From the IMG/VR virus record IMGVR_UViG_3300045988_155182: a stretch of DNA of 64,000 bases; one strand, 5' to 3'. Below are positions 1,748-61,516 of the stretch, piece after piece; position 1 is the first letter of the stretch, and each line of letters begins with the position of its first letter. Both the position numbers and the translations under genes were made by a program. The notes under the pieces were generated by a model. It was not told the DNA's origin. It searched no databases and worked only from the letters and a program-made list of their open reading frames with translations. This stretch comes from a virus (taxonomy: Duplodnaviria > Heunggongvirae > Uroviricota > Caudoviricetes).

Positions 1748-2467
1748 ATGCTCTACAAATATATTGGAAGTGAAGATTCGCAAAAAGTGTTACGTAACCT
1801 CAAACGGTTTGTAGAGGACGGCACTATCTCTGCTAGCGCACCTTCTTCATTCAACGACCCATCAGAGTTCAAAGTTTCGATAACGATGGGAGGTACAGAA
1901 GTGGAGCGCCGGAAACACTTTGAAGACAATGGATGTAAGGATTTTTCCTTTGAAGACTGGGATGCTGTAGCTCCTGAAGCTGCAAAATCGTTGGCTGTGG
2001 ATTTGCGGAAAGAATCATTAGGGGCTTTTGGTGTGGTGTGCTTGTCACCAAACGAAGATAACATCTTGATGTGGTCACATTACTCAGTGTCGCATAAAGG
2101 TTTCTGCATAGGCTTTGATGATGATTTTGTTACCTCTATTGAGGGGTATCACAGCTTTGATAATGTGAAATATATACCTTCTGTTCCCGTGTTCGATGAA
2201 GTTACAGATGAGTTTAAGGTACTTTTTGATAAGCTCTTTTTCTACAAGCACGAATGCTGGAAATATGAGGAAGAACAAAGGGTTATTACTAAAAAAATAG
2301 GCGCTCAGGCATTTGATAAGAAATATATTAGAGAGATCATTCTTGGACATAACGTTTCTCCTGAAGTAGAAGAATATGCCCGGACACAGCTAGACACGAG
2401 CATCGAGGTTTACAAAATGAGTACACCTGATGATGGTTATCTTCTTGTCAAAGAAAAGCTGAAGTAG
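1748..2467 (+). CDS. Hypothetical protein, possibly DUF2971-like; AT-rich cargo
   Basis: ATG at 1748 lies after the terminator hairpin (track start 1709 is TTG inside the hairpin); motif LMWSHYSVSHKGFCIGF recalls the DUF2971 signature; visibly lower GC than neighbours. Confidence 0.4.
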   Translation: MLYKYIGSEDSQKVLRNLKRFVEDGTISASAPSSFNDPSEFKVSITMGGTEVERRKHFEDNGCKDFSFEDWDAVAPEAAKSLAVDLRKESLGAFGVVCLSPNEDNILMWSHYSVSHKGFCIGFDDDFVTSIEGYHSFDNVKYIPSVPVFDEVTDEFKVLFDKLFFYKHECWKYEEEQRVITKKIGAQAFDKKYIREIILGHNVSPEVEEYARTQLDTSIEVYKMSTPDDGYLLVKEKLK

Positions 2468-2533
2468 CTCCAGACTTTCCTCAAATGATTATGTTGGGCG
2501 CTTTTCTTATTGAACTGGTTAGTGAGGCTAATA

Positions 2534-3706
2534 ATGGATTTGTTCTCAACCAAAATAGCAAAAAACAAGCTGCACGAATCTTTTAAACAGATTTATCAAG
2601 ATAATACATATGCTCCAGTAAGAGAAGTGATACAGTCGTGGGGGCGTGGGTTACTGGAGCGTAGCGGTGAGCAGACTAAATTCGTTAAAGAGTTTCAGAC
2701 AACCTTCAATTCCGCCTTATGGGAATTGTATCTGAACGAAATGTTTATTCGTCTCGATTATTCTGTCGACTACACAAAAGACAGTCCCGATTTCTGTGTT
2801 ACTACACCGTCAGGCTACCAGTTTAACGTCGAAGCTGTGATATCAGATCGGCCACATAATCCACCTGCAGGTGTTCTTTTTAGCGAATCAAAATTCAAAC
2901 ATCAATCAACGCTAAAATTAATCGGAAAAATCAAAGACAAACATGATCTTTTTACAGGAGTTAATGGCAAAAAATTCCCGTACTCTACGATGTCTCATGT
3001 AGTTAATAAGCCGTTTGTTCTGGCGCTTGCACCCTTTGACTCCGATTTATCATTGTCTCAAAATAACACAATCATCAATCGAGTGTTGTTTGGCATTGAG
3101 GAACCTACCACCAGAAATTTGGTGACTGGCAGCCAAACTAAAGTTACCTCAATCAAAAAGAATGAAGACGTTGAAATTCCATTAGGTATATTTACTAACG
3201 ACTCATATAAAGAAATAAGTGCGGTTATTTTCTCCACCACCGGCACTTTTGGAAAAGCCGTGGTTCAAAGCGGTATCGGTAGATATGTAAGGTCAACACG
3301 ATATCGAGCCATTGATGTGAATGATTTTATCGCCAATGAAGGGATGAAAAACGAGGGAAAGCACACACAAAGGATAGGACCTGATCATTTCATCACTACA
3401 TATCGGCATTTTTTAAATAACGAAGTCACTGGTGCGGATATTGTAGTTTGTCATTCCACTGCTCATGAAGAGACGCACTTTGACGGCCTTCATATTTACT
3501 ACAATCCTTTTGCGACAGTGCCACTGGACAGAAATATTTTCTTCCCCCCAGAGATAACTCATAATTTTTACGATATGGAAAAAGAACAGTCTGTTCAGAA
3601 TCATCCTGATGGAGCGCTGGTATCTAGACAGGTTTTTGAACCAACTAGAGCACATTTTAGGTATATCATGAAACATTGGTTTCCAGGCTTTCTAAAAGAT
3701 GTTTAA
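2534..3706 (+). CDS. Hypothetical protein, AT-rich cargo, no recognised domain
   Basis: ORF track 2510..3706 begins with TTG; ATG at 2534 is preceded by GAGG; 390 aa; same strand and close spacing to the upstream gene. Confidence 0.4.
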   Translation: MDLFSTKIAKNKLHESFKQIYQDNTYAPVREVIQSWGRGLLERSGEQTKFVKEFQTTFNSALWELYLNEMFIRLDYSVDYTKDSPDFCVTTPSGYQFNVEAVISDRPHNPPAGVLFSESKFKHQSTLKLIGKIKDKHDLFTGVNGKKFPYSTMSHVVNKPFVLALAPFDSDLSLSQNNTIINRVLFGIEEPTTRNLVTGSQTKVTSIKKNEDVEIPLGIFTNDSYKEISAVIFSTTGTFGKAVVQSGIGRYVRSTRYRAIDVNDFIANEGMKNEGKHTQRIGPDHFITTYRHFLNNEVTGADIVVCHSTAHEETHFDGLHIYYNPFATVPLDRNIFFPPEITHNFYDMEKEQSVQNHPDGALVSRQVFEPTRAHFRYIMKHWFPGFLKDV

Positions 3707-3729: not shown

Positions 3730-3791
3730 ACCTGCTTCTGTATATAAATACTAAGTTACTTATTATTATTTATACGGAAGCAGGTCTTTTT
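3730..3791 (+). repeat. Conserved long hairpin element, copy 1 (also acts as a terminator after 2534..3706)
   Basis: cctgcttctgtatataaata ... tatacggaagcagg followed by tcttttt; near-identical arms recur at 49346..49408. Confidence 0.6.
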
Positions 3792-3903
3792 CTATGCCAA
3801 CTTCCCAGACACATTCCCTTCCGTTTCCACTTCCAAAAACTGCCACCAGTCGCTATCATCCGCTCATTGCAATAAGTAAGTAACTACCTATCTGGTGAGC
3901 CAC

Positions 3904-11426: not shown

Positions 11427-11501
11427 GATGGTGTAGCTCAGCGGTAGAGCAGTTGGCTGTTAACCAACTGGTCGGTGGTTCGAATCCACCCACCATCGCC
11501 A
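11427..11501 (+). tRNA. tRNA-Asn (anticodon GTT)
   Basis: Cloverleaf by eye: acceptor gatggtg/caccatc, D-arm gctc...gagc, anticodon loop ctGTTaa, T-arm ggtggTTCGAATccacc, encoded CCA. Confidence 0.85.
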
Positions 11502-11503
11502 AT

Positions 11504-11579
11504 GCCGGTTTAGCTCAGTTGGTAGAGCGCCTGCCTTGTAAGCAGGATGTCAGCGGTTCGAGTCCGTTAACCGGCACCA
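11504..11579 (+). tRNA. tRNA-Thr (anticodon TGT)
   Basis: Acceptor gccggtt/aaccggc, anticodon stem-loop cctgc-cttGTaa-gcagg (anticodon TGT), T-arm agcggTTCGAGTccgtt, encoded CCA. Confidence 0.85.
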
Positions 11580-11803
11580 ATACAACGATAAGATCATTAC
11601 GGTTAATCGTCGTTCATGTGCACAATGACTGGTCGAAAGGTAGTGATCTTACCGTTGTGGTGGATTCGCAGACTGATGCGATAGCTTTCTTGGATGTTAG
11701 GGAAATGCGGCCGCAAATCTTCCCTTTCGCGAGCGGTGATCGTCCGTAGTCCTAATTGGCTGCACCGTATGCCGGAGATTCAGTACCGGCCACCACAACG
11801 GCC

Positions 11804-11890
11804 GGAGAGTAGGGAGCATGGTGCTCAAGCGGTCTTGAAAACCGTCCCATTGCGCAAGCGATGATGGTTCGATTCCATTACTCTCCGCCA
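11804..11890 (+). tRNA. tRNA-Ser (anticodon TGA), type II with long variable arm
   Basis: Acceptor ggagagt/actctcc, anticodon loop cTTGAaa, long extra arm, T-loop GGTTCGATTCC, encoded CCA. Confidence 0.75.
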
Positions 11891-12045
11891 GACACAGCGT
11901 TGAGCGGTTTGGCCTTTTAATCAACTCGATTAAGACTCCGCTAACATAAACCAGACCGCTCAACGCTGTGATAGACAATTACGGCAGACGTTCTTAACCA
12001 TAGCTTGCTAACATCCTAGCAACACTTTTTTAAGCGCAAAATCCA

Positions 12046-12068
12046 AAGGGGCTTCGGCCCCTTTTTTG
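12046..12068 (+). terminator. Rho-independent terminator after the tRNA cluster
   Basis: aaaggggc ttcg gcccc followed by ttttttg. Confidence 0.6.
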
Positions 12069-12977
12069 TTAATGATTGCCTAGATATGATTTTAGTTCTT
12101 CTTTAATGATTAGTGAGTATTCTAAAATATCACTTAGTAAAAATTTTGCTCTGTTAAAATACCCACCAAAAGAACCTAAAATTTCAGATGGTCTTTCTAA
12201 GAGCATCACAATATCATCTTCTTGCACTTTAGTAATGTAACTTCTAACAGCTCTTTCTCCAATAACTCTTTTCTTACCGTTTATTTCAGATTCATCTAAA
12301 ACCTTATTTATAAATTTTTCTGTATCATTGAATCGTCCACTATTGTGTACTATTGTATGTCTTAGTAGTTCAATTAGCTTGATGTTAAAGCGATAGTTTT
12401 TGCCAATCTTGTTGTTTGTTTCTATCTCTTTGAAGCCAGGTATTTTATTTCTGAAAATTTTAGTTATTTTTTTCGATGGGTTACTTTTTGCTTTTAATAA
12501 TCTGTAATAAACTTCCCTTTTCCCAATTTCATCATCTTCAACCTTACCAAAATCACTTGAGGACCATAAATCATTTCGAACACATACAGTATAGACATAT
12601 ATTGCCTCAATATAGTCTTCCAGTAACTCATAGGCTTCAGTAATAACCCACTGATATTGTTTATTTTTCAAAGTATTACACAATCTTATCTTTTCTTCTA
12701 AATCAATGGCGCTGTTACCTATCTCTAATGTTGAACCTGTATATGGGTTTGAACATAAATGGCGAGCTAACGTTGTGCCACACTTAATCTTAATAGTTTC
12801 ATTAATATTAATAATAGTATCTGGATTCTGTGCATACTCCACTTCTTTAAGAAGACGTTTTATATTTTTCTTTGTTGTATCATTTATCTGATTTAAATAG
12901 TCAAAAAGTAAAGATATTTCTTCTCTAAATTCGTTGTATTTATTTTCAATCAAAGAATCAGACAACTTACCAATCAT
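12069..12977 (-). CDS. Hypothetical AT-rich protein; possible HEPN-type Abi-like protein
   Basis: 302 aa; the only sizeable minus-strand gene in this segment; strongly AT-rich codon usage; Rx4H motif (RHTIVH) near the C-terminal third; AT-rich upstream region at 12978-13150. Confidence 0.4.
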   Translation of the reverse strand: MIGKLSDSLIENKYNEFREEISLLFDYLNQINDTTKKNIKRLLKEVEYAQNPDTIININETIKIKCGTTLARHLCSNPYTGSTLEIGNSAIDLEEKIRLCNTLKNKQYQWVITEAYELLEDYIEAIYVYTVCVRNDLWSSSDFGKVEDDEIGKREVYYRLLKAKSNPSKKITKIFRNKIPGFKEIETNNKIGKNYRFNIKLIELLRHTIVHNSGRFNDTEKFINKVLDESEINGKKRVIGERAVRSYITKVQEDDIVMLLERPSEILGSFGGYFNRAKFLLSDILEYSLIIKEELKSYLGNH

Positions 12978-13150
12978 TAAAACCTCTATAAAATGTACAT
13001 TTCAAGGCAATCCTTACTGTAATCTATTGTCGTAATCACTTCAATTGTTTACTAGTCAATCAATAAGTTACTACATACTTATCAAAAAAATCTGTTTGTA
13101 GTATAGTCTGATATGTTCGAATCAATATTTATAAAGGTATTTGTTAAGTT

Positions 13151-13606: not shown

Positions 13607-14710
13607 ATGAAAAATAGCTTTGACAGAGCACGCGCTGCGGAGAACACCTCAAAAGAGGCGATAGAGTATCTCGAAAGAGCATCTCAAATGCAGGCCGTTA
13701 TGATCTCCCAGGTCAGCAATGACATGAGATTCTCGGACGCATTCATGTTATTCACTCGCTTATCTCTGCTGATAACCAGACGTCGGCCAGAGATCGCTGT
13801 TCATTGTATTTTGATACATGTTTTGCCGCACATTGCCGATGTAAAAGTAAGTGACATTAATAGGTTCATGGTGAACCAACTGGTCAACCCACTAATACTG
13901 GATGGCAAAATTGTTATGGGCCGCCGCGTTTTCTCTCTGATGAAGCAGTTCCTTAGCTGGTGCGCCTTCCAGGGGATGATAGACGTGTCACCGTTGAACG
14001 ATATGTCACTTAACAAAGTTGCCGGTGGCGCAAAGCCCACACCTCGCGAGCGGAAGCTGACCGACGCAGAGGTATGGGTGTTCTGGAATATATGGGACTA
14101 CTTCAATGTGTGTGCTGGTACAAAATGGGCGGCCAGGCTATGTCTTGTATCCGCAAGACGACCTGACGAAGTACTGCGGGCTAAAAAAAGTGAGTTCAAT
14201 CTTAAGCGTGGGGTTTGGAATCAAGGCAAGAGGAACAAATCTGCCCGTGAGCATTCTCTGCCTTTAAGCTCATTAATGCGCACTTGTATTGAAGAGTTGT
14301 TCGAATATGGTAAAGACAGCCAGTGGCTCGTGCCTTCGAATAAAAAAATCGGGAAAGACCTTCCTATGTCTAAAGTGGCAATAGCCCAGGCATTACGTCG
14401 TATTCTGGAACGACCAGAACTGATGGAGCTTGAGCCATTTACACCCCGAGATTTGCGCCGTACTGCGCGTAGTTACTTCCCAGCATTAGGCATAAGCCAG
14501 GAGGTATCACGTAAAATCATGAACCACAGTCTTGAGGGGATAGATCGGGTCTACGACCGGCACGATTATATGGACGAGATGCGAGACGCCTTAGAAAGTT
14601 TCTCGACGTACATCGCATCAATCGTAGAGCAACCGGATTTAGACGAAATTGACCACAAATTTAAGGGAGATCGTCTATCAACAGAGCTTATTCGTGTAAA
14701 TTTTTCATAG
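13607..14710 (+). CDS. Tyrosine recombinase (integrase or Cre-like resolvase family), divergent
   Basis: C-terminal catalytic region with RRPDEV..., TPRDLRRTARSYF (R in place of the usual H of HxxR) and NHSLEGIDRVYDRHDY (box II with the tyrosine); N-terminal third not recognisable. Confidence 0.6.
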   Translation: MKNSFDRARAAENTSKEAIEYLERASQMQAVMISQVSNDMRFSDAFMLFTRLSLLITRRRPEIAVHCILIHVLPHIADVKVSDINRFMVNQLVNPLILDGKIVMGRRVFSLMKQFLSWCAFQGMIDVSPLNDMSLNKVAGGAKPTPRERKLTDAEVWVFWNIWDYFNVCAGTKWAARLCLVSARRPDEVLRAKKSEFNLKRGVWNQGKRNKSAREHSLPLSSLMRTCIEELFEYGKDSQWLVPSNKKIGKDLPMSKVAIAQALRRILERPELMELEPFTPRDLRRTARSYFPALGISQEVSRKIMNHSLEGIDRVYDRHDYMDEMRDALESFSTYIASIVEQPDLDEIDHKFKGDRLSTELIRVNFS

Positions 14711-15091
14711 AGACTTTATGGCCTCAACAACCTTTTGTGATGCGCCTTTCTCTTTACCGAATCGCTCGTTATATGCAGCAAGAACCTGTTTTTCGTCCTC
14801 GTTAAGAGGAGCAGTGCCTTCTTTGTATAAAAATGCTGCGAGTTCGGGTTGGCGTTCTTCCAGCACCATCATCATAAGACGACTTGGCTCAATGCCCAGT
14901 GCCAGCGCCAGCGGACGAACCTTATCGATAGGCAAAGGAATTTTGCCGCTTTTAATTAAAGAAAGGTTGTTGGCGTTTTTATACCCAATTGTTTTGGCTA
15001 TCTGGGCCTGGCTCATAGGTGAGGATTCAATCAACCCTGCGATAAAAGCAGCGTAGCGACTTTCTATAAATTCAATCTTGTTATCAGACAT
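14705..15091 (-). CDS. HTH (XRE/Cro-CI-like) transcriptional regulator
   Basis: N-terminal helix-turn-helix MSQAQIAKTIGYKNANNLSLIKSG; convergent with and overlapping the 3' end of the recombinase gene. Confidence 0.6.
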   Translation of the reverse strand: MSDNKIEFIESRYAAFIAGLIESSPMSQAQIAKTIGYKNANNLSLIKSGKIPLPIDKVRPLALALGIEPSRLMMMVLEERQPELAAFLYKEGTAPLNEDEKQVLAAYNERFGKEKGASQKVVEAIKSL

Positions 15092-22822: not shown

Positions 22823-23095
22823 AAAGAATTATGGCGCTTGTTGAGGAAGTCACTCCTCTTACGCACTTTGTTTTGCCATGCCGGCAGTTAGCTTCTGCCT
22901 TTGACTATTCATGCGGCAACCCCGCATTTCGCCACAATGGGCAATTCACTTTTATGGAATAAACTGGCCGTTGTGTCGATTTAATTAGCATGGCCTTACC
23001 ATGCTAATTTATTCAACTTGTACAATCCTACAAATCTATCCACTCAGGCTTACACCGTCTTCGTTATTGTAGAAATGAGGATCATCAGCGTTGAA

Positions 23096-23311
23096 TCAGC
23101 TTAGAGCAACGACATTTGCTGCTGCTGGGCCTTTAGCACCATTCTCGATAGAGAATTCGACCTGCTGGCCTTCTTCCAAAGTGCGGAAATTATTACTCTG
23201 AATTGCCGAAAAATGTACAAAAACATCTTTACTGCCATCAGCAGGAGAAATAAAGCCAAAGCCTTTATCAGAGTTAAACCATTTTACTAAACCAGTCATT
23301 TTATTAGACAT
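23096..23311 (-). CDS. Cold-shock protein, CspA family
   Basis: [38 protein letters not shown]... with RNP motifs; start reassigned to the internal ATG at 23309-23311. Confidence 0.85.
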
Positions 23312-23640
23312 AGATATTACCTTCTTAATTTTGTGAGCCACATAGTGCGGCGAGAATTTGATCTGTATAGATTGGGACTTACTTAGGCACTTAAGGAGGA
23401 GACTCACGAAGAAGGGAAATCAGAAGATAACACTGAACTGAGACTGCTTTACTAAAACTGCTTACATAAGGTCTGTCTTGCAAACCAACGATGCTATTAA
23501 CGCATACCCCTTCTTTTCATGCAACCTTTATTTTTCAAAGATAACTAATTTTTGTCACCATTGGTTTAGTAAACGTTAACGAACCAGACGATGCCAGACA
23601 CCTTTACAGAGAACAGATGCCCGCCAATTGGCGGGCATCA

Positions 23641-48728: not shown

Positions 48729-49322
48729 ATGATTGCAGCCGAAAAAATCAAACAGCGAAAGCGCGACAACTCTCTTCGTGACCTCTGGAGAACACCTGAC
48801 TGGCTGTTTTCTGCCATTCAACGTTATCTTGGGGTGACATTTGATGTTGACGTTGCCTGCAACAAGGACAATGCAAAGCTGCCTAATTTCATAGGCGTTG
48901 AGCGTGATGCTTTGAAATCTGAATGGGGACAGCCAGGTACAATTGCCTTCCTCAATCCCCCCTACTCCAAAATCTCCCCCTGGATTGATGCGGCTATACG
49001 TGAGCAGGCTCGCGGAGTTACAACAGTGATGCTAATTCCTCAATCCCTAGATACAAAGTGGTATGAGCGTGCAACAGAGTGTGCGAATGAGACGATTATT
49101 CTGTCTGGTGGCCGCGTAGCGTTTGTCGAGCCTGACGTCAATCTGGGTCAGGTAGAAGTAAACATCAACCCAGGTGGCAGTATGCTCGTTGTTTTTCGAG
49201 GATTCTGTCAGGACGCTGGGCACTCTATAAGCAAGATCCCTTTGGACGTCATGAAAAGTCTGGGAGGGTATGATCCTGCGAATGTGATCAGGAAAAAAAG
49301 ACCATCAAAGAAGGCTGCTTAG
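48729..49322 (+). CDS. Phage-type DNA N6-adenine methyltransferase (Dam_N6 family)
   Basis: WRTPDWLF, FDVDVACN and catalytic NPPYS motifs. Confidence 0.7.
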   Translation: MIAAEKIKQRKRDNSLRDLWRTPDWLFSAIQRYLGVTFDVDVACNKDNAKLPNFIGVERDALKSEWGQPGTIAFLNPPYSKISPWIDAAIREQARGVTTVMLIPQSLDTKWYERATECANETIILSGGRVAFVEPDVNLGQVEVNINPGGSMLVVFRGFCQDAGHSISKIPLDVMKSLGGYDPANVIRKKRPSKKAA

Positions 49323-49345
49323 TTTGTTCTGGCGTCTGTAATTAG

Positions 49346-49408
49346 CCTGCTTCTGTATATATAAATAACTACATATTAATTATTAATATACGGAAGCAGG
49401 CTGTTTTG
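49346..49408 (+). repeat. Conserved long hairpin element, copy 2 (terminator-like, after the methyltransferase)
   Basis: cctgcttctgtatatataaata ... tatacggaagcagg followed by ctgtttt; arms match 3730..3791. Confidence 0.6.
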
Positions 49409-49507
49409 TATCAGAGACTCCAGACCTGAACATCACTACAGAATCCACTAGAACCCCTTCCCAGACGCTTTAAAATCGATTTTATGAATCACTTTAAGGA
49501 AACTAAC

Positions 49508-49738
49508 ATGTCATACCCGACTAATGTCGTTGCGCTCGTAGAGAGCGATTTTCTGGCCCAGGCCCGTGAAATGATGAAAGATCGCGAGCAGGCTTTCAAC
49601 TTGTACGAATGGGCAATTAAGTGCTTGCATCTTGGGGAGCATCGCGAACTTGTTGAACAGCTTTTAGGTGAGTTGATCAACGAGGTGTTTGCCTTGAATG
49701 TTCAACTACATGGTCGAGAAAATAATCAATCGAAATGA
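49508..49738 (+). CDS. Hypothetical small protein
   Basis: ATG at 49508 with AAGGA RBS 7 nt upstream. Confidence 0.3.
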   Translation: MSYPTNVVALVESDFLAQAREMMKDREQAFNLYEWAIKCLHLGEHRELVEQLLGELINEVFALNVQLHGRENNQSK

Positions 49739-49744
49739 TAGATA

Positions 49745-50290
49745 AGTACAAACTATTCATAAAGTGAATTGTAAGTGCTAAGATCTGATAGTTTCCAGTC
49801 GTAGACTGGAGACTCGACCTGATGGGTGGGGGTAAGCGTCACTGGCGTCAGGTTTAAAAAAGCTCACTACCAGCGTAGAACCGGTGCCGTTTAGGTGTCG
49901 GGGAAGGGGGAACCAAAGTGAGCGGAGACAAGGGTCACTTTATGATTGTCGAGTCTGGGGTGTTTCGAGAGGTTGAATCCAGTACTCCCCTTCATAAAGT
50001 GTGGGAAGATCTCGGTTCTGGGGTGCTGTCATCCATAACTTCCCAAGTCTAAGCTGGCAGTAGACTTAGGCCATAACTTTTTCAGGTTATGAAACGACCA
50101 GGTTGGTGAGGGATTTTTATACTCACCTCCCTGGGAGAGTATTACCTGAAAAGACAACCTCTCACTTCGTTCGAGGTGAACTTCACTCACTTCGTTCGTT
50201 CAGTTCAGGTTTATAAAAACCTGTTCTGGGAAGTAATTTGTTTATTTTAATAATTATTAACACGCACGCGTGTGCGCACGCGCGAGGAAA
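49745..50290. other. ORF-free, GC-rich structured region with an alternating purine-pyrimidine tract (candidate ncRNA or origin)
   Basis: About 540 bp with no ORF in a gene-dense element; multiple hairpins; cacgcacgcgtgtgcgcacgcgcg at ~50261-50284; short direct repeats ctcacttcgttcg. Confidence 0.3.
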
Positions 50291-50322
50291 AAATCGGCGC
50301 GGCGCTTGATTCAGGAGTTTAT

Positions 50323-50913
50323 ATGACGACGAAGACACCAGCCCGATCGCAAGAAAAAACTCGCAAAAAAGCCAAAAACAAAAATTCTCCCCGCACCAAT
50401 TCCACAACGCCTGTCGTAGAGTTCAATCCCCAGCTTAAAACCGTGAAAATCTTCAGTGATGGCTCTTGCCTTAAAAATCCGGGTGGCCCGGGCGGTTACG
50501 GTATAGTTCTCCAGTATCGTGGTGAGGAACGCGAGTTCTCAGATGGTTTTCATAGCACCACCAATAACCGCATGGAGATGATGGGGGCACTTATCGGGCT
50601 GGAGCGTTTGAAATATCCATGCAACGTTATTTTGCACTCTGATAGCCAGTATCTGAAAAACGGCATGACACAGTGGATGAAATGGTGGAAACGCAATGGA
50701 TGGGTGACTTCTGACAAAAAACCGGTAAAGAATGTTGATCTGTGGAAGCGTCTGGATGAGGCCGCAAGTCGACATAATGTTCGCTGGAAGTGGGTTAAAG
50801 GCCACGCCGGGCATCGTGAAAATGAAATATGTGATCGACTCGCGAAGATCGCAGCTTTTTCCGCAGCAGATATGCCTCACAAGAAAGATATTGGTTTTGT
50901 TTATAACAAATAG
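50323..50913 (+). CDS. rnhA: Ribonuclease HI
   Basis: [18 protein letters not shown]...[10 protein letters not shown]...[21 protein letters not shown]...[13 protein letters not shown]...KGHAGH closely matches E. coli RNase HI; start at the ATG with AGGAG RBS (track start 50272 is GTG). Confidence 0.85.
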
Positions 50914-51061
50914 TAAGTAAGTGTTTACCTATCATTTTAAATCATGTATCTTATCGGCGTCAGGATGACAATGTGTCGGTAAGACACAGTTCCAGGATGG
51001 AACGAGAAAGGCGGCTGGCAATCGCCAGCCGCAACTCTTTCTGACACTGGATGGAGTCCAC

Positions 51062-51556
51062 ATGGCACGTCAAACCTATTTCACTTCTGCAACTAAACGT
51101 CCTCGTTCTTTACGTCAAATTTTGGCCGAATTGTTTAGCGGTCGTGTTATGTCACGTCTTGATGAACTAGAGACTACCGTTCGGTTGCTGAATGAACGTT
51201 TAGATAATCAAGCGTCAGTTGTTGCGAACGTGGGGGCGATTGTTGCCTCTGGTTCTTCACGCGAAGCGAAAAGTACACGGCCTTTAGTGAAGGAGAAAAA
51301 CAACAAGGACAGTTCGAATGGAAAATTTTCAAAGAAAGAGGCTGAAACCAATGGCCTACGTTCTCATTATAGTTTCACTGGCGACGGTAGCCGTTCCAGC
51401 CGGCCAGAGCCTTTTGATGCCGGGTTCATCCATCACCACACCTCCGTCGACGACAATTACCACCACTACAGTAGAGCGTCCTGTCACTCTGGATGGGATG
51501 ACGGTGGATGCGATACCTCAAGTTCATCCAGTTACTCAGGATCATGCTGTGACTAA
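51062..51556 (+). CDS. Hypothetical protein with S/C-rich C-terminus
   Basis: 164 aa ORF. Confidence 0.3.
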   Translation: MARQTYFTSATKRPRSLRQILAELFSGRVMSRLDELETTVRLLNERLDNQASVVANVGAIVASGSSREAKSTRPLVKEKNNKDSSNGKFSKKEAETNGLRSHYSFTGDGSRSSRPEPFDAGFIHHHTSVDDNYHHYSRASCHSGWDDGGCDTSSSSSYSGSCCD

Positions 51557-60751: not shown

Positions 60752-60964
60752 GCAATAGTACGATAAAGAGGCCCCATGCTCTTGATGGGGCCTGTAGCAA
60801 CTAGCGTTATGGACGCTGGTTTACGTACTCAATGATCGCTTTGATAATCGCGAACATCGGCGGCACGATTTTGAACAGTAAGTTAACCATAACAGGCCTC
60901 ACTTAGTTTTATCGCGCCTAGCTGCAAATACCTTTGGGCTTGCCTTTGCAGTTGCAATATCTGT

Positions 60965-61153
60965 AGTCGCCAGATACTTACGGCACGATTTCGAGTTAAG
61001 GTAAGGTTTTAGAGTCACCAAAAACCTGGACTTAAATCTTCTTTGAGAACAACGATGTTTAGTAAATGGTCATTATTACCTGGTATGACCACTCAACCTT
61101 TCTTGATGAATCCAGTACATTCGGTTAATCTTAATTCAGTCGCCAGATACTTA
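60965..61153. repeat. Pair of 16-bp direct repeats (AGTCGCCAGATACTTA) 173 bp apart in the ORF-free junction region
   Basis: Exact copies at 60965-60980 and 61138-61153; the second is followed by two tandem hairpin plus T-tract terminators (61161-61190, 61192-61222). Confidence 0.5.
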
Positions 61154-61516
61154 TGGCTCAGGAACAGAGCCGCAAACTCTGTTTCCTTTTAAAAAGCCCA
61201 GCCTAGTCAACTGGGCTTTTTAATGTCTATTTTTAACCCAACATACCCTCAATACTGCAACATCAGTGTCTTGCGAATTAAGATAGTGTGAATAGATTTT
61301 TCATGCAAGTGCATAAGCCTGTGGATAACTCAGGAAGGAAAAAGTGACTTCTGCGCACTTTAGACCGGACAAGGCGTTCGAAAAAGTCAATGGGAAGAAA
61401 AAATTTGTTAAAAATAACGTTTGTTTGAATTGTATATATTTATGCCTTTCAATAGTTAGCATCTTATTAACATCTTTTTTAAGAGATAGAGTTCAAAAAT
61501 ATATAGCTTCAATATA

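Follow-up and report, generated by a model that had tools for sequence, protein, structure and literature searches.

What function maintains some 540 bp without an open reading frame (ORF) directly in front of the RNase HI gene of a phage-plasmid? The region in question, positions 49745-50290, lies in IMG/VR record IMGVR_UViG_3300045988_155182, a Caudoviricetes sequence of 64,000 nucleotides (nt) that was analysed over its whole length and is referred to here as the window. The original prediction, made from the letters alone, offered a structured non-coding RNA (ncRNA), a lytic-type replication origin and a recombination site as candidates, and connected the position before RNase HI with R-loop-primed replication. 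The window represents a phage-plasmid of the SSU5/pHCM2 type, since the region matches phages of the SSU5 group and 687 plasmids. The ncRNA reading of the region's core is strongly supported. We consider it fairly probable that the locus is the gene of a complexly folded ncRNA of about 450 nt, transcribed from a promoter of its own and active in trans, as a free RNA, in the plasmid-prophage state.

Coding sequence is indeed missing from the region. The longest ORFs between the stop codon of the upstream gene (49738) and the rnhA ATG at 50323 comprise 53, 44 and 37 amino acids (aa). Masking all ORFs of 55-60 aa or more leaves 49739-50182 as the second-largest gap in the window, and 9-10% of the window uncovered overall. 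The predicted abundance of local hairpins is reflected in the fold energies (-198.6 kcal/mol on the + strand and -163.1 kcal/mol on the - strand), which are far better than those of shuffled sequences (z = -5.4 and -6.3, respectively). The region had also been described as GC-rich, a property that its GC content of 0.46, against 0.455 for the window, does not bear out; the GC content of the RNA core is 0.48. The span under study is composed of three distinct parts, namely the core, a spacer, and a purine-pyrimidine tract followed by the leader of rnhA (together 50260-50322):

49790..50240 (approximate), + strand: type A phage-plasmid ncRNA, structured core of about 450 nt, recognised by conservation, covariation, strand asymmetry and RNA sequencing (RNA-seq)
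50238..50259, no strand: A/T-rich spacer of 22 nt (4.5% GC), variable in sequence and length among lineages and always A/T-rich
50260..50284, no strand: alternating purine-pyrimidine (Z-DNA-prone) tract ACACGCACGCGTGTGCGCACGCGCG, 25 bp in perfect alternation
50285..50322, + strand: rnhA leader with AGG, a poly-A run, GC-rich CGGCGCGGCGC and the Shine-Dalgarno sequence AGGAG

Strong conservation is confined to the first of these parts. In an alignment of 5.6 kb of the locus with 14 divergent relatives, positions 49823-50222 retain 88-98% identity, against 65-83% in the flanking genes for Dam, the small protein and RNase HI, and about 74-75% in the spacer, the tract and the rnhA leader. The RNA core is the most conserved segment of the locus, and this distribution of identity suggests that the functional unit is a core of about 400-450 nt ending upstream of the Z-DNA-like tract. 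The type A profile matches 49813-50242 only.

Comparative covariation, proposed as a check together with the original prediction, favours an RNA. In 48 distinct close relatives, 99.8% of the alignment cells are paired under the RNAalifold structure, and 65 cells carry changes in both partners, against 16.8±3.3 in shuffled alignments (0 of 500 reaching this number). Divergent copies, reached through homologues of the upstream small protein, have identities of 90% (L288), 82% (L283) and 67-69% (L289 and L281/L282/L284). Across 12 lineages, down to 67% identity, 96% of cells are paired and 32 pairs display compensatory changes; shuffles give 10.9±2.4 such pairs (0 of 500), and slid controls 3-8. 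The changes are spread over 11 helices, among them H4 (7 of 10 pairs), H6 (5 of 10), H1 (5 of 15) and H5 (3 of 7). Another apparent divergent homologue, L285 (Logan SRR8137545), was excluded: essentially every C is read as T in comparison with its relatives, and the record is therefore an assembly of bisulfite-converted reads. Such records can mimic divergent homologues and inflate the G-U 'covariation'.

The consensus fold is better by 33 kcal/mol on the + strand (alifold energy -133.8 against -100.3 on the - strand). The same helices are 99.6% canonical when read on the + strand and 87.5% on the - strand, the drop being caused by 14 G-U pairs in the consensus fold. The asymmetry bears on the possibility that the locus is purely a DNA-level element, made of protein-binding repeats, cruciforms or a recombination site, with no functional RNA. 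Several inverted repeats sharing CAGGT/ACCTG, the invariance of the direct repeats and the clustering of 5 of the window's 11 TCTGGG sites within 1.1 kb would fit such an element, as would the deletions and cargo junctions at the 3' flank; the latter, with those at the purine-pyrimidine tract, also weakly and indirectly favour the recombination site of the original prediction. A DNA element does not explain the G-U pairs, the compensatory changes that proceed via G-U intermediates or the poor - strand reading, nor the conservation of a promoter at a fixed distance and the documented accumulation of a transcript, and we regard it as very improbable. TCTGGG/CCCAGA was rejected as a DNA-binding motif, there being no enrichment of it across the window.

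The reading of the locus as one or more small protein-coding genes centres on a single annotated frame:

49918..50052, + strand: spurious 44-aa ORF inside the RNA (CYRAN_81 in Escherichia phage Cyrano)

The annotation of Cyrano places a 44-aa 'hypothetical protein', CYRAN_81, as a coding sequence inside the RNA, and its ORF is intact in the E. coli, SSU5 and Enterobacter clades. The ORF starts with GTG, and frameshifts or stop codons interrupt it in L032, the Klebsiella clade, L070 and L066-68, with the downstream nucleotides almost identical. The 53-aa and 37-aa ORFs are likewise frameshifted or stopped in several lineages, and neither Pfam nor PHROG gives a match for the small ORFs within the RNA. 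A coding gene with a frameshift or an unusual start, named beforehand as the finding that would speak against an RNA, is not what the broken frames indicate, and a protein product of the locus is hardly credible.

Published RNA-seq, also suggested beforehand as a check, shows the segment to be transcribed. The re-analysis of a Cyrano lysogen in a study of LF82 places CYRAN_81 12-fold above the prophage background, among the genes exceeding it at least 5-fold (PMC9928086). In the S1 Table of that study, the log2 fragments per kilobase per million (fpkm) of CYRAN_81 are 6.8-10.4 in 10 of 10 samples; across the same samples, CYRAN_80 and rnhA have 2.6-5.8 and the repressor CYRAN_45 has 6.4-10.4 (PMC9928086). 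The authors interpreted CYRAN_81 as a moron protein (PMC9928086). We assign the signal to the RNA, because the ORF is broken in several lineages.

Upstream of the core lie the elements expected to direct its transcription:

49736..49757 (core 49741-49753), no strand: operator-like palindrome GATAGATAAGTACAAACTATTC, present in all lineages
49756-61 and 49776-84, + strand: sigma-70-type promoter of the RNA, with -35 TTCATA, a 17-bp spacer and extended -10 TGcTAAGAT, at the same position in every lineage
49790..49814, + strand: 5'-terminal hairpin P0, AGTTTCCAGTC-GTA-GACTGGAGACT, minimum free energy -15.3 kcal/mol, z = -5.0

The predicted start of the RNA is at about 49790-49792, and the centre of the palindrome is about 43 bp upstream of it. 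Across lineages the promoter spacer is exactly 17 bp long; the -35-like hexamer is TTCATA in the window and TTTACN or TTTAAA in other lineages, and the extended -10 takes the forms TGnTAAGAT, TAAAAT and TAGAAT. The scan tool calls the promoter in L060 (TTTACG-17-TAGAAT) and L066 (TTTACT-17-TAGAAT with TG), and at the equivalent place of locus L164 (TTTACT-17-TATCAT), which carries a second type of RNA, type B. The 5' hairpin begins 6-8 bases past the -10 element and is predicted at the same place in 9 of 9 lineages, although its sequences are unrelated between lineages; its z-scores range from -5.0 to -0.7, the weak cases being L066 (-1.6) and L281 (-0.7).

Other clades have a perfect palindrome (GGTAAGTACTTACC), and the E. 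coli clade of the window a degenerate one. The window contains 33 matches to its motif GTAAGTNNTTACC, with 12.2±3.4 expected, and these occupy no fewer than 12 intergenic sites, one of them (15124) beside a helix-turn-helix (HTH) repressor gene. Being enriched, intergenic and present next to this gene, the palindrome is probably the operator of the prophage repressor. The dispersed palindrome (GATAG)GTAAGTNNTTAC(CTATC) is intergenic and often overlies -35/-10 elements, with sites at 3876, 10659, 15124, 17784, 25193, 28713, 34465, 39150, 43863, 48702, 49741, 50917 and 55887, and the HTH repressor gene beside one of them spans 14705-15091. To judge by sequence, the arrangement looks like a multi-operator regulon in the style of P1. 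Type B elements carry a different palindrome, TAAGTAA-N4-TTACTTA.

The predicted fold of the type A RNA comprises the following elements, in addition to P0:

49816..49854, + strand: H1 hairpin GACCUGAUGGGUGGGG / CGUCACUGGCGUCAGGUU with invariant GGGUGGRGG; 5 of 15 pairs compensatory and 96.7% of cells paired in the 12 lineages
49862..49923, + strand: H2 domain GCUCAC ... GUGAGC, helices 2-5, with compensatory pairs numbering 3 and 1
49925..50163, + strand: central multi-helix domain, closed by GAGA..GGU / ACCUCUC, with covariation in the 12 lineages
49936-45 with 49992-50001, + strand: H4, within the central domain
50002-08 with 50039-45, + strand: H5, UGGGAAG/CUUCCCA, with invariant internal loop GAUCUCGGUUCUGGGGU
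50047-71, + strand: H6, within the central domain
50072-91, + strand: hairpin CAUAAC/GUUAUG, within the central domain
50098-50134, + strand: CCAGG-GGUGAG/CUCACC-CCUGG, within the central domain
50161-73 and 50186-98 (span 50161..50198), + strand: two 13-nt direct repeats CTCACTTCGTTCG, with CGAGGTGA between the copies
50199..50230, + strand: 3' hairpin UUCAG-UU-CAGGUUU...AAACCUG-UU-CUGGG (helix 19, 2 compensatory pairs)

The H2 domain encloses a hairpin at 49881-49901 and the invariant, mostly unpaired G-rich segment GGGGAAGGGGGAACCAAAG (49898-49916). Compensatory pairs of the central domain fall in helices 8 (7 pairs), 9 (2), 12 (3), 13 (1), 14 (5), 15 (1) and 17 (2). Its closing helix (6/7) shows no covariation in any of the 12 lineages, and a candidate pseudoknot UUUUCAG/CUGAAAA (helix 16, 50079-85 with 50146-52) is without covariation support. 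The original prediction had correctly noted short direct repeats, and these begin at 50161 and 50186; Tandem Repeats Finder (TRF) detects no tandem repeat in 49300-51100, where there are just the two 13-nt copies 25 nt apart. The second copy pairs with CGAGGUGA in a predicted hairpin (helix 18) that does not covary. Both copies are invariant in the 48 close relatives, and the second is shortened in relatives at 67% identity. Helices 6, 7, 16 and 18 are unproven, as they are invariant or poorly aligned. The 3' hairpin ends in the invariant UUCUGGGAA, followed by a U-rich tail. Motifs that remain invariant even at 67% identity are GGGUGGRGG, the G-rich GGGGARRGGGRGAAYCAAAG, GAUCUYGRUUCUGGGGU, CCUCUCACUYCGUUCGAGG, which is the most conserved block of the RNA, and the terminal UUCUGGGAA. 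The G-rich loop is also complementary to CCCCTTCCCAGAC, which lies upstream of the small gene; this match shows no covariation in other clades and was therefore treated as chance.

Compensatory changes, strand asymmetry, an own promoter and a transcript mark the locus as a structured ncRNA gene, the ends of which are predicted. A scan of the whole window against Rfam 15 at gathering score, the remaining sequence-based check proposed for the locus, finds only cspA and two tRNAs, all of them elsewhere; at E<=10, the matches in 49300-51100 are all far under their gathering scores, and none covers the conserved core. A literature search returned no description of the type A RNA, and the LF82/Cyrano transcriptome (PMC9928086) was the only useful report. 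The type A RNA is a new family within a known kind, the large structured ncRNAs of mobile elements. This kind includes GOLLD and ROOL, large complex-folded ncRNAs of phages and prophages with unknown function. Type A resembles these RNAs in its length of several hundred nt, its many covarying helices, its invariant unpaired motifs, its residence in a temperate mobile element and its own transcription unit. It differs from them in lacking an Rfam match at gathering score or at E<=10, in lying 38 kb from the tRNA cluster, and in its narrow host range of Enterobacteriaceae phage-plasmids and its fixed slot in a replication module.

The 12 phage records matching the region include Salmonella phage SSU5, Escherichia phages Cyrano, PhiR41_1 and CMS-2020a, and several Klebsiella phages. 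The 687 plasmids are mostly non-mobilizable, those listed being mostly about 105-125 kb long, and come from Klebsiella, Escherichia, Enterobacter, Salmonella, Citrobacter, Cronobacter and Shigella. Of 5,426 complete E. coli genomes, 232 carry the type A RNA; plasmids (106-115 kb among those listed) account for 232 of its 234 matching places. Other carriers include pHCM2 of S. Typhi CT18 and a 122.8-kb plasmid of K. pneumoniae HS11286 (NC_016838.1). In 12 of 12 listed E. coli records the annotation over the RNA is blank. The annotation of Cyrano places the locus within a replication and nucleotide-metabolism module, in the order helicase, primase, ligase, Pol III alpha, UvsY, gp32-like single-stranded DNA-binding protein, RecA, RepA, SbcCD, RuvC, RNR, ThyX, Pnkp, DHFR, epsilon exonuclease, Dam, small protein, RNA locus, RNase HI and TerB-like genes.

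A sister lineage holds a different RNA at the same site. About 30 Klebsiella plasmids, mostly of 108-118 kb, encode flanking proteins about 50% identical to those of the window, and carry between the small gene and rnhA an ORF-free element of about 490 nt with a structured RNA of about 450 nt (type B). Its fold has z = -6.65, and compensatory changes occur at 18 predicted pairs over several helices. The layout of operator, promoter and 5' hairpin is shared with type A. At the 3' end, a stem UUCGGCC/GGCCGAA is followed by U7, but encloses an 18-nt loop and is not called a terminator by the scan tool. The type A profile has no detectable homology to type B by nhmmer, and Rfam yields nothing on the type B locus; type B is a second new family. 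A block of about 27 nt common to A and B was rejected as evidence of homology: it is specific to the window (with an extra T) and changes by covariation in divergent type A copies, and a scan of the collection with it returned 4 type B loci along with 34 others that have no detectable similarity to either RNA. In locus L286, a B-like RNA accompanies an A-like small protein (70% identity), so the RNA module has been exchanged independently of the small protein.

The genes on the two sides of the RNA bear on its possible role:

49508..49738, + strand: upstream small gene encoding 76-84 aa in three predicted helices (phrog_5343), with a stop codon that directly adjoins the operator of the RNA promoter
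50323..50913, + strand: RNase HI gene, 196 aa, of which about 37 form a basic N-terminal extension (Pfam RNase_H, 1.6e-44)

All loci found through the upstream small protein carry a type A or type B RNA directly downstream, in a search that was anchored on that protein. A Rop-like or other RNA-binding fold was considered for the protein and rejected, the three-helix model (predicted local distance difference test, pLDDT, 78) having no match in the PDB with E below 8. On the downstream side the gene varies. L281, L284 and L289 have a protein of about 200 aa that is not RNase H (with a sub-threshold DUF7557 match in L281 and L284 and none in L289), the downstream gene of L166 is also not RNase H, the Buttiauxella plasmid L288 has a UvrD-like helicase on the opposite strand (2395-3231), and in pEH4236 the cargo gene betT follows the type A RNA, with the junction at a shortened purine-pyrimidine tract. 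Conversely, rnhA loci of distant phages have no ORF-free gap upstream, and an RNase HI-based search of genome contigs recovered chromosomal rnhA only; the RNA is therefore no general companion of phage RNase H. On sequence grounds, RNase HI is a neighbour of the RNA and no conserved partner. The 3' flank of the RNA is a hotspot of cargo and replacement across lineages: besides betT with DUF2254 in pEH4236 (L163 2950-5435), it holds a gene with a weak Tad2-like Pfam match two genes downstream in L281/L282 (L281 4105-4416) and an unrelated - strand gene in pKqq_SB1124_3 (L166 2084-2530).

The position before RNase HI was the basis for proposing an R-loop link. In the model of ColE1 RNA II or T4 oriF/oriG, the transcript would hybridise in the A/T-rich and purine-pyrimidine region, be trimmed by RNase HI and prime the leading strand of a lytic origin. 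The location in a replication and recombination module adjoining RNase HI fits this model, as do the G-rich RNA with its local GC skew of +0.14 and the A/T-rich spacer, Z-prone tract and GC-A(n)-GC motif downstream. The distance of about 500 nt from promoter to poly-A resembles that of ColE1 RNA II, and the likeness extends to a structured G-rich transcript of about 500 nt with its own promoter, a GC-flanked A-run after it, and an RNase HI gene in the window. The idea is left unsupported because RNase HI is not a constant neighbour of the RNA, which in divergent carriers is followed by another gene. The tract is shrunk to CGCGCG in L281/L289 and absent from type B, whose stem and U7 would release a free RNA. 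Cumulative GC skew has no inflection at 50 kb. Nor is the antisense RNA I of such systems apparent: the core has no Rfam match, the RNAI family included, no conserved antisense promoter was seen, and the sole nearby - strand promoter-like site (49797-49768) points away from the RNA. A primer needs neither a conserved multi-domain fold nor a protective 5' hairpin, and the RNA is stable at a repressor-like level in lysogens, where the RepA replicon about 17 kb away is expected to drive replication. We judge an R-loop origin at this locus to be improbable.

The tract itself is much as first described, at 25 bp instead of the 24 bp originally given. It is the longest purine-pyrimidine run of the window (the next is 15 bp), and runs of at least 24 bp arise in 0 of 300 first-order Markov simulations. 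Runs of 18-29 bp are present in 48 of 48 close relatives, with substitutions preserving the alternation, and a run is also found in L283; the conserved kernel is CGCGCGAG(G/A)AAA. In its long uninterrupted alternation rich in CG and CA/TG steps, which substitutions maintain, the tract is like Z-DNA-forming (CG/CA)n sequences. It differs from them in being length-polymorphic and shortened or lost in relatives, and the Z-form here is a prediction. In L281/L289 only the 6 bp CGCGCG are left of the tract; its length varies, and part of it is deleted in L041 and pEH4236, similarity to the latter ending at the A/T-rich spacer or just past it; type B loci have no such tract. Length polymorphism, reduction in a divergent lineage and absence in type B point to a slippage-prone spacer rather than an essential partner of the RNA. 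We read the tract as a local rearrangement hotspot that is probably dispensable for the RNA, and 50260-50322 (tract, poly-A and GC-rich segment) as a putative separate, slippage-prone leader or spacer of the downstream gene, outside the RNA. The poly-A run (50288-50293), which has 6 A here and 5-10 in near-identical relatives, is a homopolymer-slippage site 30 nt upstream of the rnhA start.

The RNA could instead be a cis-acting leader or attenuator of the downstream operon (rnhA and the following genes), in which alternative folds choose between termination or processing and read-through, and the abundant lysogen RNA is the terminated leader. It lies on the rnhA strand and ends about 85 nt before the rnhA ATG, no + strand promoter-like site was found between the two, and the RNA-seq signal drops 10- to 35-fold from CYRAN_81 to rnhA. 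Alternative pairings are possible via UGGGAAG (two copies), CUCACUUCGUUCG (two copies) and CAGGU (four copies), and in type B the stem with U7 before rnhA is extended by a covarying long stem. Against this, lineages retain the RNA with different genes behind it, namely RNase HI, betT cargo, a helicase on the opposite strand or a protein other than RNase H. A terminator switch by alternative pairing between CUUCCCA and the 3' UGGGAAG was considered and rejected: this pairing is not conserved in L281/L289, and it is the pairing with the 5' copy that covaries. With 450 nt and at least 15 helices, the RNA is far above the size of known leaders and matches no riboswitch or leader family. A leader function appears unlikely on this balance.

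The RNA is better explained as one that acts in trans. Conservation extends to nearly every nucleotide, including those in loops, and lineages retain the RNA irrespective of the gene that follows it; lysogens contain it in amounts similar to the repressor mRNA, and the sister lineage has swapped in an unrelated RNA of the same size and layout. The RNA has its own sigma-70 promoter, placed right after the operator-like palindrome, through which it is probably wired to the prophage repressor. It is predicted to start with the 5' hairpin, it folds into at least 15 helices around the large central multi-helix domain, and it accumulates in lysogens well above its neighbours. Its action as a free RNA in the plasmid-prophage state would most likely be that of a protein-binding, scaffold or ribozyme-like RNA, with recognition via the invariant unpaired motifs GGGUGGRGG, GGGGARRGGGRGAAYCAAAG, GAUCUYGRUUCUGGGGU, CGUUCGAGG and UUCUGGGAA.

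Several observations weigh against this interpretation. The promoter of the window scores only 8/12 by manual count, under the cut-off of the scan tool, no canonical terminator is called at the type A 3' end, where the U-rich tract begins 6-7 nt past the covarying hairpin, and both ends of the RNA are predicted. Helices of the 3' third, including the closing helix and the repeat hairpin, are invariant or poorly aligned and hence predicted only, and close relatives may be almost identical in the 3' half partly because the module was exchanged recently. The RNA-seq counts span a 135-nt sub-segment and may not be strand-specific, and given the operator at its promoter, the RNA could be an early lytic transcript that is abundant in lysogens through its stability. 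No complementarity beyond chance was found in the 64-kb window (the best is 11-12 nt, E>=1.4), and the work yielded no partner, target or activity for the RNA.

RNAs of the prophage state are known from other plasmid-prophages and from satellites. The immunity RNAs c4 of P1/P7, CB of N15 and CI of P4 measure about 70-80 nt, arise by processing of a leader and have complementary target sites just downstream. Type A shares with them its occurrence as a prophage-state RNA of a plasmid-prophage, and the sequence-unrelated variants A and B at one locus are as expected of a specificity determinant. Unlike c4, CB and CI, it is about 450 nt long, has no Rfam match and no complementary target in the 64 kb, and is not followed by an antirepressor operon. 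RNA antitoxins of type III toxin-antitoxin systems consist of tandem repeats of about 34-36 nt by a toxin gene, and no tandem array is found here by TRF.

Other features of the window were recorded alongside the locus. Right after dam, 49344-49402 forms a hairpin with 17-bp arms, an A/T-rich loop of 25 nt and a following T-run. This probable dam terminator is conserved in all lineages, with compensatory changes, and an arm like it (ACGGAAGCAGG) is found again near 3790. The small gene has a -10-like TAAAAT, immediately preceded by repeated motifs (C)TCCAGAC/CCCAGAC (two here, at 49418-49468, and three in other clades), which may be activator sites. The 145-nt leader of the gene after rnhA (50940-51060; ATG 51062) has two AGGAU-loop hairpins, GUCAGGAUGAC and GUUCCAGGAUGGAAC, with GGAUGGAG at the ribosome-binding site, and looks like a set of candidate CsrA-binding sites; it also has a weak CsrB match (E=0.048) and a strong GC hairpin at 51011-51032. 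No ORF-free gap of the window is larger than 60752-61343 (592 nt, fold z -3.96), in which the 19-nt sequence AGTCGCCAGATACTTAYGGC is directly repeated at 60966 and 61138, at a distance of 172 nt, and both ends have hairpins resembling terminators. On the - strand, 23071-23489 gives a full-length match to the Rfam cspA thermoregulator (187.6 bits), and the phage-plasmid therefore carries a cspA-like gene with a thermosensor in its 5' untranslated region. A tRNA cluster (Asn-GTT, Thr-TGT, Ser-TGA) at 11427-11890 is followed by a low-GC island (12001-13000, GC 0.30) with a 302-aa ORF on the - strand.

Phage-plasmids of the SSU5/pHCM2 type occur commonly in clinical Enterobacteriaceae and are able to carry resistance genes, and the control of their lysogeny and replication is essentially unstudied. 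No other sequence of the replication module is as conserved as the type A RNA. Genome annotation pipelines leave the RNA blank or miscall it as a spurious 44-aa protein. Bacterial RNAs of such size and complexity of fold are rare, and earlier ones proved to be ribozymes or ribonucleoprotein (RNP) machines. The type A RNA is present in genetically tractable hosts (E. coli K-12 phage PhiR41_1, LF82/Cyrano and Salmonella SSU5), and the second, unrelated RNA in the same slot constitutes a natural swap experiment. More tentatively, we consider it possible that elements of the SSU5 type have a dedicated 'RNA slot', occupied in every case by one of two or more unrelated large, ornate ncRNAs. These would form a new class of phage-plasmid RNAs, acting as RNP scaffolds or ribozymes that control the plasmid-prophage lifestyle. 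If so, the slot RNAs may serve in the maintenance of lysogeny, in the specificity of immunity and incompatibility, or in the switch to lytic replication, and the RNA type would define the compatibility between co-resident elements.

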